A DNA stretch of 64,000 nucleotides from a phage, in sequence record PX423614.1; one strand, 5' to 3'. How positions within the stretch are numbered: position 1 is the first letter of the stretch; each line of letters starts with the position of its first letter. Position numbers and translations under genes: made by a program. The notes beneath the pieces were generated by a model. It did not search any database and had not been told where the DNA came from. It was given only the letters and a program-made list of their open reading frames with translations. Of the stretch, positions 13,276 through 36,593 are shown piece after piece.

Positions 13276-14748
13276 ATGATTAAGATTCCATTGTCTGAAT
13301 TGAACCTTCAAGAAGGAGAAGCCCTCAGTGTAGGGCTTGACCTGATTCGTAATTTGATCAGAGATAACGTAGTCCCTGATGGCATCTATCCTGTTATTGC
13401 AGGTGGTGCTATCCGTGATACGTTCTTCCAAAATAGAACTCCGAATGATGTTGATATCTTCCTAGTTCAAGGAGGGTTTCGTTGGAACACTCGTCAGGAA
13501 AACAGCCCTGCTAACGTAGGTAATGCTGCACTTTTCCTTGACAACTTCTTATCTTGGACAGAAAGTAAGGGGCTTCAGGTTACATCTCGACTAATTCAGC
13601 CTGTTAACGGGACAACCTATGCTGAAGCGCTTTTCACTTTCCAAGAGATTCTGGAAATTGAGATTGATCAAGTTAAAATCCAGATGATGATTAATCTACC
13701 TTTGGATATGGATACTTTAAGCCGTCGCTTCCCTATGATCTGTCAAGGGTTTATGACTCTTGGTAATCTGTATGTGTCAAACGAAGGTTTGTTTGCAATG
13801 TCATACACTCGTGACATTCCTGTGGTATCTAGTCGTGAAATGAAGTACGTTCACAAGAAGTGGCCTGAAGCAACTGTTGCAGTTTATAGCAGTTCTACCG
13901 AATATATGCACCTTGCAATGGGAGCTTTCGGTGAGCCAGAAGTTCACCTGATTAGTGATTTAGTTGGACCTATGGCTGGTGTAAATTTATATCAGAATCA
14001 GCGTCGTCATTATACCCTGAAGATGATGGAAACTATATTAAACATTCCTCAGGAAAGGGGTCGTAGTTATCTGGACGAGGAAGTTAACCTACAGACAGAA
14101 TGGTCTAGTGGATTAACCACTATAGGTGCTGAAGCAATCACGCAGCCTTGGACTCCGGGAACTAACAGACGAGATCTTCAAGCTTTTAATGAAGAAACTT
14201 CTCGAACAGTTCGAGGAGGTGTTGTAGGGTATAACGTACAACCTCATGAAAGACCTCGTGACACTTTCACTGGCAGTTTTGGTAGTGCACGCTCTTCTGG
14301 AGTGGATACTCGTACATGGCATGTCCAAGGAGGAACTGCTCGTCCTATTCCCTCTCCGTCAATGGATGATTTGCAGCGTTCTCGTCGTTCATGGGAAACA
14401 GTAAGCTCTGTTGTTCAGGGTCTACGTGCTAGAGATATTGAACGTGTAGAAGTTGGTGATTTGCCAACCCCTACAGAAGATCGAGTATCAGCTATAGCGG
14501 CTCGTGAAGCTGCTCATATTGGTTTTGCATCATTAACTAATGACGCTAACGAAGCTCCTCGACCTGTTGGTCGTCGTAATGGTCTAGCTCACTCTGACAC
14601 TGCACTTGGTGCAGAACTACGAGCAGCAGCTCGTGAGCTATCTGGTGAGCTTCACAACAACCTAGCAGGTGTTACACTATCTCGTGAAACAGCTCGTAAT
14701 ATGATTAATAATTTGGCATCATCTGTACAAGGAAACAGAAACTCATGA
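13276..14748 (+). CDS. Pol-beta-superfamily nucleotidyltransferase (CCA-adding/poly(A)-polymerase-like head) with disordered R/S/G-rich C-terminus
   Basis: AGGAIRD-x13-DVDIF fits the G[GS]-x9-13-DxD nucleotidyltransferase motif; C-terminal ~200 aa low complexity. Confidence 0.5.
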   Translation: MIKIPLSELNLQEGEALSVGLDLIRNLIRDNVVPDGIYPVIAGGAIRDTFFQNRTPNDVDIFLVQGGFRWNTRQENSPANVGNAALFLDNFLSWTESKGLQVTSRLIQPVNGTTYAEALFTFQEILEIEIDQVKIQMMINLPLDMDTLSRRFPMICQGFMTLGNLYVSNEGLFAMSYTRDIPVVSSREMKYVHKKWPEATVAVYSSSTEYMHLAMGAFGEPEVHLISDLVGPMAGVNLYQNQRRHYTLKMMETILNIPQERGRSYLDEEVNLQTEWSSGLTTIGAEAITQPWTPGTNRRDLQAFNEETSRTVRGGVVGYNVQPHERPRDTFTGSFGSARSSGVDTRTWHVQGGTARPIPSPSMDDLQRSRRSWETVSSVVQGLRARDIERVEVGDLPTPTEDRVSAIAAREAAHIGFASLTNDANEAPRPVGRRNGLAHSDTALGAELRAAARELSGELHNNLAGVTLSRETARNMINNLASSVQGNRNS

Positions 14749-15278
14749 GTCTTTTAGGTTCTCAAGAATTACACAGCGTTATCGATAATGGCTTTTTAGA
14801 TGCGGAGCATAAATATGTTAACGCTGCTAGCGTGGATATCCGTATTGGTGATACTATCCTTGTTGAAGAACAGGCTGATGGTATTGTTGACATTGATGCT
14901 AAAGAAAACCTCAAGTGGAAAGAAGTGAAAATCCCTGAAGATGGCATTGTCATTACTCCGGGACAGTTCTTCTTAGCTCACTCTATGGAAGAATTTAACC
15001 TTCCAGACAATATTTCAAGTCTGTTTGTACTCCGCTCCTCAATGGCTCGTTGTGGTTTAAACCACTTACATGCTGGGTGGGCTGATGCAGGGTTTAACAG
15101 CAGTAAGCTAACCTTTGAGTTCCATAACGTTACCCACAATCACAGCTTACGAGTTCGTGCTGGGATGCGTGTTGGTCAAATGGTTATGTTTGAACACTCT
15201 CACGCTGGTGATGATTCCTATGCAGTGAAGGGTCGTTATAATAACTCTGATGGGGTTGTTGCTTCTAAAGGCGTATAA
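14745..15278 (+). CDS. dcd: dCTP deaminase / dUTPase-family protein
   Basis: SVDIRIGD, LRSSMARCGL, GWADAGFN and GMRVGQMV resemble Dcd motifs (VDVRLG, GRSSLARLGL). Confidence 0.7.
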   Translation: MSLLGSQELHSVIDNGFLDAEHKYVNAASVDIRIGDTILVEEQADGIVDIDAKENLKWKEVKIPEDGIVITPGQFFLAHSMEEFNLPDNISSLFVLRSSMARCGLNHLHAGWADAGFNSSKLTFEFHNVTHNHSLRVRAGMRVGQMVMFEHSHAGDDSYAVKGRYNNSDGVVASKGV

Positions 15279-15281
15279 TTG

Positions 15282-15494
15282 ATGGAGTTTGGAACAATGA
15301 AAAGACGTTGGGTAGTCCGCGTTCACTGGAGCAGTGGTACAGAATCAATGGGTATCAGAAACACTCGTCAAGAAGCTCGCGCTCATAAGAAGTTCTTATT
15401 AAGCTGCGAAAGTACTATTGACAAGATCACTATCCACAAAGCTCAGGACTTTAAATCAGGTCGTTTCTATATCAGCGGAAAGGTACATTACTAA
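15282..15494 (+). CDS. small basic protein, paralogue family A member 1
   Basis: W-x-V-x-V-x-W...TRQEAR...KITIHK...KVHY shared with three other ORFs. Confidence 0.5.
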   Translation: MEFGTMKRRWVVRVHWSSGTESMGIRNTRQEARAHKKFLLSCESTIDKITIHKAQDFKSGRFYISGKVHY

Positions 15495-15700
15495 TGGCTA
15501 AATTATGGGCAGTTCGTGTTAAATGGGCTAACAAAGATCTTGGTGGTGATTGTCTTAAACTGTTTGACACACGACAAGAAGCTCGTCTTGCTAAGAAAGC
15601 TACAAAAGCTTTAGGTCTCGCTGAAAAAGTAGAGATTCATCGTTGGTTTCAAAATGATAATAACAGTGCAGGATCCTTGACTAGCAAGGTTCATTACTAG
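15494..15700 (+). CDS. small basic protein, paralogue family A member 2
   Basis: Same pattern (WAVRVKW...TRQEAR...KVEIHR...KVHY); start overlaps upstream stop (TAATG). Confidence 0.5.
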   Translation: MAKLWAVRVKWANKDLGGDCLKLFDTRQEARLAKKATKALGLAEKVEIHRWFQNDNNSAGSLTSKVHY

Positions 15701-15770
15701 TTGGTAGTAGATATGATAACTCTCAAATGTATATACAGTATAAGAATATTGTATGAAACAGGAGAGAGTT

Positions 15771-16100
15771 ATGTTAGATTTGAGTAAAGTGGCCCCGCCA
15801 TCTGAAGAGATTAGCAAAGCTAAAGTTATGCAGCAGTTCTATCATCGTGATATGCTTGGTCGTTATATCAAGAATCGTGATGTTGTTGCATGGTCTATTG
15901 GAAATCAAGGTTATCTTCTCAAAGTGTTGCAAGTTACTGGCTCAACAGCCAAGCGAGTCAAAGTCTATGACCCTGAAATGGGGCGTTCTAAATCAGTAGA
16001 CCCTCAGAATTGCATTGTTATCACACAACAGGTCATGGATAACATTGCTCGTAATGTAGCTAATTCAACTAACTTAGAAGGGGATGCACCTAATGCATAA
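15771..16100 (+). CDS. hypothetical protein (109 aa)
   Basis: ATG at 15771 with RBS AGGAGAG; within track ORF 15753..16100. Confidence 0.5.
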   Translation: MLDLSKVAPPSEEISKAKVMQQFYHRDMLGRYIKNRDVVAWSIGNQGYLLKVLQVTGSTAKRVKVYDPEMGRSKSVDPQNCIVITQQVMDNIARNVANSTNLEGDAPNA

Positions 16101-16659
16101 TAATGTCTTCGACTTACCTGAACTAACACGAGTGGGTTCTAGCAACCCATTCTCTACTACTGACTCTTCTATCTCTCGTCTTGAGGGAATGAATAAACTG
16201 ATTAGCGGTAACAGCTTAGAACACATCTTGTGTGGTGTGCAAGCTAACCTTGAACTTCTACACATCAAAGCAAAGAACTACCACTGGAACGTCTCTGGAG
16301 CTGGTTTCCAAGGTGTTCATGGTATGTTCGATGAGTTAGAAGATTATGCTCGTGAGGCAGGCGACCGAATAGCAGAGCGTATGCGCTTTCACTGTGTTAA
16401 AGTGGATGCTACTGCTAGTAACTATTTAGGTCATGCTTGGTTCCGAGAAGGTAACGCTGATCTCGACATGGACGGTATGCTTTCCGACATGTGCATGACT
16501 CTGATGTGTATCATTGAAAAGATGGACGAGTTTGATTCAGACTTGTGCACTTATCCAGTTGACCAGAGTATGCTTCAAGAAATTAATGAAGGTCTTGGCA
16601 AGTTCTGCTACTTCGTCAAGAGCAACATGTCCCACTCCAGTGGTGACGTGTCTTACTAA
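16093..16659 (+). CDS. Dps-like ferritin-fold protein
   Basis: NLELLHIKAKNYHWNVSGAGFQGVHGMFDELEDYAREAGDRIAERM matches the Dps signature H-x-YHWNV-G-x-F-x-x-H...FEE...D-x-x-AERI. Confidence 0.6.
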   Translation: MHNNVFDLPELTRVGSSNPFSTTDSSISRLEGMNKLISGNSLEHILCGVQANLELLHIKAKNYHWNVSGAGFQGVHGMFDELEDYAREAGDRIAERMRFHCVKVDATASNYLGHAWFREGNADLDMDGMLSDMCMTLMCIIEKMDEFDSDLCTYPVDQSMLQEINEGLGKFCYFVKSNMSHSSGDVSY

Positions 16660-16722
16660 TCAAACCTCCGCCCTGTCTCTTTGTTTAAGAGGTGGGGCGA
16701 ACTTCTTTATAAGGATATGAGT

Positions 16723-16902
16723 ATGTTTTCAGCAATCGTATGGTCTGTATGGGCAATTCTTGTTGGTGGTATCGTTTATCTGGCTCAGAAGCAGATGCTT
16801 AAAGAGAATCCGAATGATGCTAAACCTATTAAACATGGCAGCATTGCTCTGGTAATTTTCTCTGTTGTTATTCCTTTCCTTCTCCACCTGTTGACTGCAT
16901 AA
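16723..16902 (+). CDS. small two-TM membrane protein (paralogue B1)
   Basis: ATG 16723 with AAGGA RBS; two hydrophobic segments flanking KENPNDAKPIKHG. Confidence 0.5.
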   Translation: MFSAIVWSVWAILVGGIVYLAQKQMLKENPNDAKPIKHGSIALVIFSVVIPFLLHLLTA

Positions 16903-16911
16903 GGGTTTGAT

Positions 16912-17100
16912 ATGATTTCACTGATTGTGTGGGCCGTGTGGTCGTTAATAGTTGGTACTGTTATATATATATAAAGCTCGAAATTTAGCAATTAAAGAAA
17001 ACCCAGCAGAAGAGGATGTTAAAGCTATCAAGCTAGGTAGTGTTGTTCTGGTACATTTTGCTATAACACTACCTCTTGTTATTATTCTTTGTATGCTATA
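16912..17100 (+). pseudogene. interrupted paralogue of the 16723 membrane protein; reading frame broken at a (TA)6 tract
   Basis: MISLIVWAVWSLIVGTVIYI then TAA inside TATATATATATA (16962-16973); downstream +1-shifted frame encodes KARNLAIKENPAEEDVKAIKLGSVVLVHFAITLPLVIILCML, homologous to the upstream gene. Confidence 0.45.
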
Positions 17101-17291
17101 AGGAATCCAAAGAGTGAAACTAAACCTACCTGAAGAATTACAAGCACATGCCATTATCGTTAGTGGCTGTGTGATGGGTCTTGGTCAGACAAAGAAGATT
17201 GCTCATGACTTAGCAAAAGGTCAGTATAAATCTTTTATTGTTGTTCCTGCTACCCAGCGTCATATCAACCTGTTTATTAACAAGGAATAGA

Positions 17292-17567
17292 ATGAGTAAA
17301 GTAATTAAGTTTTATAGTAATTCATGTGCTCCGTGTGCAGCTATGGCTCCTGTGTTTAAGAAGGTTGTGGCTGACTATAGTGTAGAAGTTGAAGAAGTAA
17401 ATATCTCTGAAGGTGATGGTCGAGAGCGAGCCGTTGAATATGGTGTTCGCAGTATCCCAGCCTTTGTCGTCCCTGATAAGAACAGTGGTGCTCATTATAG
17501 TTTATCAGGTATGCAAACTGAATCTAATCTCCGTGCATTTTTAGACACGGCTCTGAAAGGTATTTAA
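17292..17567 (+). CDS. thioredoxin-like protein
   Basis: CAPC active-site motif in thioredoxin context (KFYSNSCAPCAAMAPVF...IPAFVV); RBS AAGGAA upstream. Confidence 0.7.
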   Translation: MSKVIKFYSNSCAPCAAMAPVFKKVVADYSVEVEEVNISEGDGRERAVEYGVRSIPAFVVPDKNSGAHYSLSGMQTESNLRAFLDTALKGI

Positions 17568-17568
17568 T

Positions 17569-17784
17569 ATGGAAAAGAAACCTTGGATTACTTTTTGGGT
17601 AGTTAAGTGGTTTAATTTTGATAGCACAATCCCTAGCCTCTCCTCGTACACAACACGGAGAGAGGCTCGCCGCTTTAAGCGAGCTTTAAAAATTGCTAAC
17701 ACTGGTGCTTCTAAGATCACAATCCAGAAAGGGATTGAAACAGAAAGTGGAAGCAATCTGATTTATAAAAAGATTTACTATTAA
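17569..17784 (+). CDS. small basic protein, paralogue family A member 3
   Basis: WVVKW...TRREARRFKRALK...KITIQK...KIYY. Confidence 0.5.
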   Translation: MEKKPWITFWVVKWFNFDSTIPSLSSYTTRREARRFKRALKIANTGASKITIQKGIETESGSNLIYKKIYY

Positions 17785-17799
17785 AGAATAGGTGCTATT

Positions 17800-18012
17800 A
17801 TGACTCAAGGAAAAGATGTGTATTTTTGGGCTGTTGTTTCTGAATATCCAGAGATGGAGTATCCAAGGGTTAACACGTGTGCTACTCGTAAAACTGCACG
17901 ATGCACTAAACGTGCCCTCAAGAAGATGGGTCGTGATTCGAAGATTTCAATCCACCGTGCATATATGACAGCAGCGGGTTTCATTGTAGTAACACCAAAA
18001 GTTTATTATTAA
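17800..18012 (+). CDS. small basic protein, paralogue family A member 4
   Basis: FWAVV...TRKTARCTKRALK...KISIHR...KVYY. Confidence 0.5.
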   Translation: MTQGKDVYFWAVVSEYPEMEYPRVNTCATRKTARCTKRALKKMGRDSKISIHRAYMTAAGFIVVTPKVYY

Positions 18013-18026
18013 GGAAGAGTTCAAGG

Positions 18027-18677
18027 ATGAATGAACAATTACAAGCAACACTAATTGAAGCAATGGGAAATGACAAAACCGTTGTTAACGCAGCTCGGGT
18101 TTCTTTTGGAGTCACTCGTGAAGGAGAGTTAAATGAACGTGATGAACGCCTTATCAAATTCCTTGCCAGAGAAAAACACTGTACACCATTCCGTCATCCG
18201 ACAATTAGCTTCCGATGCAAAGCGCCAATCGCAATTGCGAGGCAGCTGGGCAAGCATCAAGTTGGATTCTCGTGGAACGAAATGTCCCGGCGGTATAAAG
18301 ATGGAGCAGTTGAACTCTTCATCCCTAAAGAGATTTTTGAAAGACCTTCGGACCTCCATGCAGGTGCGGGGAATCTCCTCACCACAGGAGCACAAAACTC
18401 TGCACTAGTCCTGATTAATCGGGCATATGAAACAGCTCTTGAGTCATATGATGAGTTGATTAAGTTCATCGCTCCAGAGCAAGCTCGATTCGTACTACCT
18501 CAGGGAATGATCACTGAGTGGGTGTGGACAGGCTCTTTATATGGTTGGTCAGAGTTGTGTCGTCAGCGACTGTCCGACCATGCTCAGTATGAAGTACGAG
18601 TGTTCGCATCAACGGTCGATGAAGAGCTTCGTAAACTTTTCCCAATCTCATGGGACGCACTACGTGAAGCCCACTAA
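18027..18677 (+). CDS. thyX: ThyX-like flavin-dependent thymidylate synthase family protein with variant signature
   Basis: HCTPFRHPTISF and KHQ-x8-S...RRY resemble the ThyX H-x-S-P-F-EH and RHR-x7-8-S motifs, but RHR is replaced by KHQ. Confidence 0.5.
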   Translation: MNEQLQATLIEAMGNDKTVVNAARVSFGVTREGELNERDERLIKFLAREKHCTPFRHPTISFRCKAPIAIARQLGKHQVGFSWNEMSRRYKDGAVELFIPKEIFERPSDLHAGAGNLLTTGAQNSALVLINRAYETALESYDELIKFIAPEQARFVLPQGMITEWVWTGSLYGWSELCRQRLSDHAQYEVRVFASTVDEELRKLFPISWDALREAH

Positions 18678-18849
18678 AGTGTGTAGCTTCTGTCAAAAGC
18701 AGAAGCTTCTTATCAATTTCAAGCTGAACGAGGAAACAGGTTTGGGTCATGCTTTTTGTCATGATTGCAGGTACTACCTTGAACAGAAGCAACACATAAA
18801 CTGGTTGCATTACTACAAACCTAACACCTACAAGCACAAGGTTATCTAA
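18664..18849 (+). CDS. small Cys-rich (zinc-ribbon-like) protein, possible GTG start
   Basis: In-frame GTG at 18664 after the ThyX-like stop; CSFCQK...CHDC pairs. Confidence 0.25.
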   Translation: MKPTKVCSFCQKQKLLINFKLNEETGLGHAFCHDCRYYLEQKQHINWLHYYKPNTYKHKVI

Positions 18850-36523: not shown

Positions 36524-36593
36524 AACGTCTCCTTATAAATAAAAATGTCCTACCTCCTATATACATTATAAGAGATAGGACTTAGGTCTTAGA

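Follow-up and report, generated by a model that had tools for sequence, protein, structure and literature searches.

Why should a compact phage genome retain four related genes for small, basic proteins, arranged as two tandem pairs among its replication genes? The question is raised by positions 15,282 to 18,012 of a 64,000-nucleotide (nt) stretch of phage DNA (sequence record PX423614.1), the whole of which is referred to here as the window. An initial annotation, made from the letters and open reading frames (ORFs), described four plus-strand ORFs of about 70 amino acids (aa) with shared motifs, and proposed that they were paralogues of no characterised family, kept for a function under selection such as nucleic-acid binding or host takeover. 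The window belongs to a Kuravirus/phiEco32-like coliphage, a C3 podophage (Gordonclarkvirinae/Kuravirus). Megablast with window positions 14700–18700 matched 99 phage records, the closest being Escherichia phages Bas87, Bas88, vB_EcoP-101114UKE3, IME267 and ECBP2, at 92–95% identity over that interval. Judged by their sequences, the four genes, here designated copies A to D, are true paralogues that were duplicated anciently, and their family occurs only in the phiEco32-like phage supergroup and resembles no protein of known function. The four copies are:

15297..15494, plus strand: copy A (most likely start), 65 aa, isoelectric point (pI) 10.5, net charge +9; orthogroup of phiEco32 gp70
15494..15700, plus strand: copy B, 68 aa; orthogroup of phiEco32 gp69; its start codon shares one base with the stop of copy A (TAATG)
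17569..17784, plus strand: copy C, 71 aa; thyX-adjacent orthogroup; starts 1 nt past the stop of the thioredoxin gene
17800..18012, plus strand: copy D, 70 aa; the most divergent copy, clade-specific; ends 14 nt 5' of thyX

All four ORFs lie where they had been placed, apart from the start of copy A. It had been set at 15282, but the ATG at 15297 is most likely the true one, because GGAG lies 9 nt upstream of it, the resulting protein fits the family consensus M-K-K/R-x-W, and Bas87 annotates the same 198-nt form; the alternative in-frame starts are a TTG at 15279 and the ATG at 15282. At 15279–15296 of the window, the conserved leader that precedes the first array gene, GGAGTTTGGAACAATG, comes immediately after the stop codon of the dCTP deaminase gene (dcd). 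A Shine–Dalgarno-like sequence precedes each of the four copies. The arrangement as two tandem pairs is also correct: the A/B overlap suggests translational coupling, and C and D are 15 nt apart.

Relatedness of the four proteins had been read from shared motifs, and it is borne out statistically. BLASTP aligned all six pairs at 33–40% identity (E 6e-10 to 2.7e-5), and their Smith–Waterman scores correspond to z = 7.5–14 over 2000 shuffles, none of which (0/2000) reached the observed score, while unrelated small neighbouring ORFs gave local alignment scores at background level. Within the alignment, identity to copy A is 28–38%. A hidden Markov model (HMM) built from the four copies and run against 958 six-frame ORFs recovered exactly these four, the next having E 0.28, and there is no sign of a fifth copy in the window. 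Eleven positions are invariant among the four (copy A numbering): W5, V7, T23, R24, A27, R28, K31, K43, I46, K62 and Y65. Some of the motifs first described need relaxing: W-x-V-x-V-x-W is strict in A and B and not in C and D, TR-x-EAR holds except in copy D, which reads TRKTAR, and K-I-x-I holds except in copy B, which reads KVEI. The C-terminal K-[VI]-[HY]-Y is found in every copy and, together with T-R-x-x-A-R-x-x-K and K-[IV]-x-I-[HQ]-[KR], makes up a core pattern that is real. The proteins are indeed basic, with pI 9.8–10.5 and net charges of +6 to +9, and they rank 3rd, 4th, 6th and 7th in basicity among the 81 putative products of the window.

All four copies also match a single profile, phrog_4939 (PHROGs v4, function unknown), with E-values of 5.2e-26, 2.6e-19, 9.4e-22 and 1.4e-12, over positions 1–67 or 4–67 of its 67. 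The family is therefore already catalogued, as phiEco32 gp69/70/71, but uncharacterised, and its orthologues in the Gordonclarkvirinae (Kuravirus, Nieuwekanaalvirus and Suseptimavirus) are annotated as 'hypothetical protein'. That it is not a characterised family was confirmed by the sequence databases: neither the four copies nor a set of 28 family members had a Pfam match at E <= 10, PADLOC-DB gave no defence family (0 matches), NCBIfam only noise (E 0.034 and 0.17, well short of the cut-offs), and the PDB sequences nothing better than E 0.28. When 1.84 billion cluster representatives were searched by HMM with filters off, only 23 proteins reached E <= 1e-3, about 19 of them of the same kind, with lengths of 65–78 aa. 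Three word-seeded searches yielded 11, 57 and 17 proteins of 48–91 aa, mostly on contigs of about 77 kb, all of which lack Pfam domains and are unnamed or labelled 'hypothetical protein'. By tblastn, the family is found in 43 deposited phages of Escherichia and Salmonella. The literature search found no mention of phiEco32 genes 69–71, and a paper on the small RNA svsR in Kuravirus infection has no connection to the family genes.

The suggestion that these genes are maintained by selection has fared well, given their Shine–Dalgarno-like sequences, the retention of orthogroups across genera, and the differences from Bas87. The latter number 14 synonymous and 2 non-synonymous in copy A and 7 and 1 in copy C, corresponding to ratios of the non-synonymous to the synonymous proportion (pN/pS) of 0.03 and 0.04; the comparison rests on A and C, since copy D offers too few changes to judge and an indel separates the two B sequences. 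By this measure, copies A and C are under strong purifying selection. Between paralogues, similarity at the DNA level is confined to a 31-nt stretch coding for TRQEAR (77% between A and B), so the duplications must be old and have not been homogenised by conversion. A DNA-level repeat, mobile cassette or RNA element was considered as an explanation of the locus and rejected, as there are no flanking repeats, no Rfam match in the window, and nothing beyond those 31 nt in common.

AlphaFold2 models, built with family alignments, are confident for copy A (pLDDT, the predicted local distance difference test, 92.6; pTM, the predicted template modelling score, 0.76) and for D, the copy that has diverged most (pLDDT 90.0, pTM 0.76). 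The two are alike, consisting of a beta-hairpin, a 14-residue helix and a second hairpin, the last strand of which includes the C-terminal K-V-x-Y. No significant relative of known function was found in the PDB: a Foldseek search with the D model gave no match at E <= 0.001, the best being PsaD (E 0.08, template modelling (TM) score ~0.5), which was also the top PDB fold match for both paralogue models in two different programs. PsaD is one of several generic two-layer alpha/beta sandwiches, with ERH, the phosphohistidine phosphatase PHPT1, the palm domains of nucleotidyl cyclases and reverse transcriptases, and PII/BMC proteins, whose likeness to the models lies in a four-stranded sheet crossed by one helix; 52–64 of 65 residues superpose on such folds, with root-mean-square deviations of 1.3–4.3 Å. 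The modelled fold therefore amounts to a small two-layer alpha/beta sandwich of generic type, without an informative relative. Against predicted viral structures (BFVD), the best matches (E <= 0.011, three of them at E <= 0.001) were almost exclusively uncharacterised members of the family itself, including distant ones from Salmonella phage SE131, Cronobacter phages 009 and GAP52, and Aeromonas phage LAh_8. DUF2188 (PF09954) is of similar length and shows a similar succession of beta-hairpin, T-x-x-E-A helix and x-I-H-x strand, and a DUF2188 phage protein appears at rank 38 of the BFVD matches (TM 0.60) with a non-significant E of 0.11. Membership in DUF2188 or a YegP-like family was rejected on this E-value and on the lack of any Pfam match for the 28 members; as DUF2188 has no known function itself, it would explain nothing.

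The setting of the four genes is a block for replication and nucleotide metabolism, within the part of the window, up to about 32 kb, where genes run on the plus strand before switching to the minus strand. From its 5' side, the block consists of a DNA polymerase exonuclease subunit (12725), a nucleotidyltransferase (13276), dCTP deaminase (14745), copies A and B, a 115-aa ORF, a Dps/ferritin-like gene (16084), small membrane ORFs, thioredoxin (17292), copies C and D, ThyX (18027) and PhoH (19825). The corresponding cluster of phiEco32 belongs to the middle expression class (PMC8948821). Three genes bound the two array sites:

14745..15278, plus strand: dcd, dCTP deaminase, the conserved upstream boundary of site 1 (PF22769 DCD is matched in contig L006)
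17292..17567, plus strand: phage thioredoxin, the upstream boundary of site 2 (Pfam Thioredoxin, 1e-12)
18027..18677, plus strand: thyX, thymidylate synthase ThyX, the downstream boundary of site 2

With dcd, thioredoxin and thyX the copies form a tight, operon-like series in which neighbours are separated by 1–18 nt, and a gap of 52 nt follows copy B. Related phages deviate from this layout in two places: between dcd and the first family gene, Bas87 (L001 2084–2275) and KBNP1711 (L003 2302–2493) have a small membrane-like ORF of about 190 nt that the window lacks, and Bas87 (L001 5018–5485) has a gene for an HNH endonuclease inserted between copy D and thyX, where the window (about 18012–18027) has only a 14-nt spacer.

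Across genera, the family falls into five orthogroups: the gp71-type, the gp70-type (A), the gp69-type (B), the thyX-adjacent type (C) and a clade-specific type (D). In a neighbour-joining tree copy A groups with phiEco32 gp70 and B with gp69, and in phiEco32 the array likewise lies 3' of dcd, the order dcd–array–gp68–Dps being common to both phages. They differ in that the window has no gp71-type gene and carries the thyX-adjacent C and D, which phiEco32 lacks; outside the window, the D type was seen only in Bas87 and the P0001 cluster. Copies at sites 1 and 2 are distributed as follows:

Window and Bas87: 2 at site 1, 2 at site 2
4E8, KBNP1711 and MN05: 3 at site 1, 1 at site 2
phiEco32 and L006: 3 at site 1, 0 at site 2
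L012: 4 at site 1
L013: at least 4 at site 1, 0 at site 2

Bas88 has the same four genes as Bas87. Several copies were found in every one of the nine Kuravirus-type genomes or contigs examined, a retention that few other uncharacterised gene sets show, and array members are joined by one-base overlaps of stop and start codons. Members of the distant 7-11/GAP52 subgroup have a reduced set of one or two copies: Salmonella phage PKM.Hi.22.6 has one directly 5' of thyX and another two small genes 3' of a DNA polymerase gene, in GAP52 the sole relative, of 80 aa, adjoins DNA polymerase I, and on L014 a copy lies immediately 3' of a DNA_pol_A gene fragment. The gene is therefore old in the supergroup and lies in the replication module in every case; in the Kuravirus branch, as comparison of gene orders indicates, it has been amplified to 3–5 copies, placed after dcd and before thyX, with gain and loss ongoing. 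It was also considered that copy A might be a gp71/gp70 recombinant, which would account for the change from three to two copies at site 1, but this was dropped for want of signal, since the identities in the N-terminal 12 columns (7/11 compared with 3–5/12) were equalled by another gp70-type protein (7/12).

What these proteins do may be approached through the residues that they conserve. Basicity is a property of the whole family, all 28 aligned members having pI 9.7–10.8 and net charges of +5 to +10. In 37 sequences filtered at 80% identity, W5, T23, R24 and R28 never vary, and A27, K31 and Y65 hardly do; K2, R8, K32 and K48 are basic in at least 73%, K3, K35 and K43 in 62–68%, and position 47 is His in 70%. 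E26 is the only conserved acidic position. On the models, W5, A27 and the alternating hydrophobic positions fit a role in core packing, and T23 that of helix N-cap; the invariant or nearly invariant positions outside the core are almost all Arg or Lys. A helical wheel places R24, R28, K31, K32 and K35 on one side of the helix, beside its hydrophobic face, where they would form a continuous basic ridge. Variable segments are the hairpin loops and the C-terminus of the helix, which differ between subfamilies and are conserved within each.

That every subfamily retains the Arg/Lys ridge unchanged points to a polyanionic ligand shared by all of them rather than to separate protein targets, and taken with the constant location in the replication module it makes nucleic-acid binding the most economical reading. 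We therefore favour, while granting it somewhat less than an even chance, the view that the family comprises small nucleic-acid-binding accessory proteins of the replication module. Each paralogue would fold as a compact sandwich of beta-hairpin, alpha-helix and beta-hairpin, and could bind phage DNA or an RNA, in an architectural, regulatory or replication-accessory role, through a surface made up of the helix ridge (T23 as N-cap, R24, R28, K31, K32 and K35) and of K2, K3, R8, K43, H47 and K48 on the sheet, with the subfamily-specific loops perhaps giving each copy its own specificity or partner. Overlapping stop and start codons would lead to roughly equimolar products, which might co-assemble. 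Proteomic data for phage SU10 include the neighbouring gp65, gp67 and gp68 and no family member, which is weak evidence either way, because K/R-rich proteins of 8 kDa give few usable tryptic peptides.

Other explanations were weighed against nucleic-acid binding. Chance ORFs or non-coding sequence, with similarity that means nothing, are refuted by the shuffling scores (z = 7.5–14), PHROG matches down to 5e-26, orthologues in ~100 phage records, pN/pS values of 0.03–0.04 and two confident AlphaFold models, and this explanation can be given practically no weight. The host-takeover function proposed at the outset, in which each paralogue would be an effector or counter-defence protein that inhibits or redirects a host protein, such as a defence nuclease or nucleoid protein, and the array would be shaped by an arms race, is the main and a serious rival, which we hold to be less likely than not. 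Turnover of copy number and restriction to one lineage speak for it. Against it, RNA polymerase pull-downs from phiEco32-infected cells, performed by Savalia and co-workers in 2008, reportedly gave only gp36 and gp79. If targets differed, the same basic ridge would not be expected in every subfamily, orthologues show strong purifying rather than diversifying selection, and the genes belong to the middle-class replication cluster and not to the early cluster for host takeover (PMC8948821). An accessory or regulatory role, in which the proteins would bind the enzymes encoded next to them (dCTP deaminase, ThyX, thioredoxin/DNA polymerase) and might organise a complex for dNTP synthesis or the replisome, appears unlikely. 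The close packing with dcd, thioredoxin and thyX would suit it, as would the position of a copy directly 5' of thyX even in PKM.Hi.22.6 and beside DNA polymerase A in GAP52 and L014; but this synteny may be mere vertical inheritance within one module, a stoichiometric subunit is not expected in 3–5 diverged copies, and the thyX-adjacent copy is dispensable, phiEco32, L006 and L013 keeping thyX without it.

A more specific form of DNA binding is suggested by a resemblance to the AP2/ERF domain (PF00847), which is of the same fold class as the N-terminal domains of the lambda and Tn916 integrases. The family profile matched a 418-aa protein at E 1.8e-5 in five stretches, and Pfam identifies that protein as consisting of AP2 repeats (8e-18); hhalign of the family against these repeats gave 54% probability over 28 columns, with an AP2 profile drawn from only four repeats of the one protein. 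The alignment covers the N-terminal hairpin and the start of the helix, and the likeness lies in a beta-hairpin that carries W-x-[AV]-x-[IV] and, after it, [FY]-x-T-[KR]-x-[EQ]-A, which opens a helix packed on the sheet. The family differs in having two strands before the helix and two after it, whereas AP2 has three before (beta-beta-beta-alpha). Membership was rejected, since none of the 28 members scores with Pfam AP2 at E <= 10, the strand order differs, and the fold searches did not recover AP2, which leaves a shared supersecondary motif. Degenerate AP2/integrase-type DNA-binding domains, for example detached modules of homing endonucleases, are accordingly scarcely credible as an origin of the four copies, even with the two matches above and the HNH endonuclease gene inserted directly after copy D in Bas87. 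The weak resemblance of the hairpin and helix start to a DNA-binding domain was nevertheless counted for nucleic-acid binding.

The Gordonclarkvirinae have a broad and unexplained resistance to restriction–modification (RM) systems (PMC11990801). Avoidance of restriction sites was examined as its cause and rejected, since the tested sites occur in the window near their expected frequency (EcoRI 14, EcoRV 20, EcoKI 8 and EcoP1 109). Other motifs in the window are depleted: 6-mer palindromes number 638 compared with 1071 expected, at least 10 of them being absent (e.g., the PstI, SacI, SalI, NcoI and SphI sites), Dcm sites number 4 compared with 74 expected, and GATC 118 compared with 238. It could be speculated that the family represents a new nucleic-acid-binding fold whose co-expressed paralogues assemble on phage DNA, or join dCTP deaminase, the nucleotidyltransferase and ThyX in a DNA-modification pathway, and so explain the resistance. 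We regard this as very doubtful; middle-gene products cannot protect incoming DNA unless by modification during the previous replication cycle.

Phages of the phiEco32/Kuravirus type are often isolated and considered for therapy, and their molecular biology is poorly studied (PMC11990801). The present family is well delimited but typical of the ORFan paralogue families of phages, and challenges no current concept. It is a cheap and well-defined target, because the proteins are of 65–71 aa, the tractable BASEL phages Bas87 and Bas88 carry the same genes, and the point mutants to be made are clear. If DNA or RNA is bound, the family would contribute a novel small fold for such binding, and perhaps a replication or regulatory factor so far missing; if host proteins are bound instead, it would provide new effectors of takeover or counter-defence.

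The 52-nt gap after copy B contains a candidate promoter element with one mismatch to tAATGTAtA, the consensus of middle/late promoters recognised by the phiEco32 sigma factor gp36 (PMC8948821):

15725..15733, plus strand: AAATGTATA, candidate gp36 sigma-factor promoter element

A predicted promoter is annotated at the equivalent position in phage 4E8. If functional, the element would put A and B at the end of one transcription unit and C and D in the next. Matches to the gp36 element, TAATGTATA, occur on the plus strand of the window at 15725, 20566, 27329 and 4227, and on the minus strand at 36568, 27266, 62438, 53938, 39929 and 39569. Four of these are perfect (+20566, +27329, -36568 and -27266), and those at +27329 and -27266 form a divergent pair.

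Several features of the surrounding block deserve mention. The nucleotidyltransferase (13276–14748, plus strand) is a 490-aa protein with no Pfam match at E <= 0.01, the C-terminal half of which is long and rich in Ser, Arg, Gly and Ala; its SU10 counterpart is annotated as CCA-adding-enzyme-like, and a possible role in DNA modification has been proposed by the BASEL authors (PMC11990801). The curated Bas87 genome (L015, Bas87 27600–77516) has no gene annotated as coding for a single-stranded-DNA-binding protein, although its replication set is T7-like (polymerase plus exonuclease subunit, primase/helicase, ligase, exonuclease and a thioredoxin of the phage's own); nothing firm can be inferred from this because many Bas87 ORFs remain hypothetical. 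Between the two array sites, the window contains an intrinsic-terminator-like hairpin at 16669–16699 (plus strand), just 3' of the Dps/ferritin-like gene, with a 13-bp stem that includes seven GC pairs and is followed by a T-rich tail; it is the sole one of its kind in 14600–18800. A second tandem pair of paralogues was also detected here, two small membrane-like ORFs at 16681–16902 and 16952–17101 (plus strand) that share K-E-N-P...K-x-I-K-x-G-S-x-x-L-V, with a local alignment score of 80 (z = 13.8 over 2000 shuffles).

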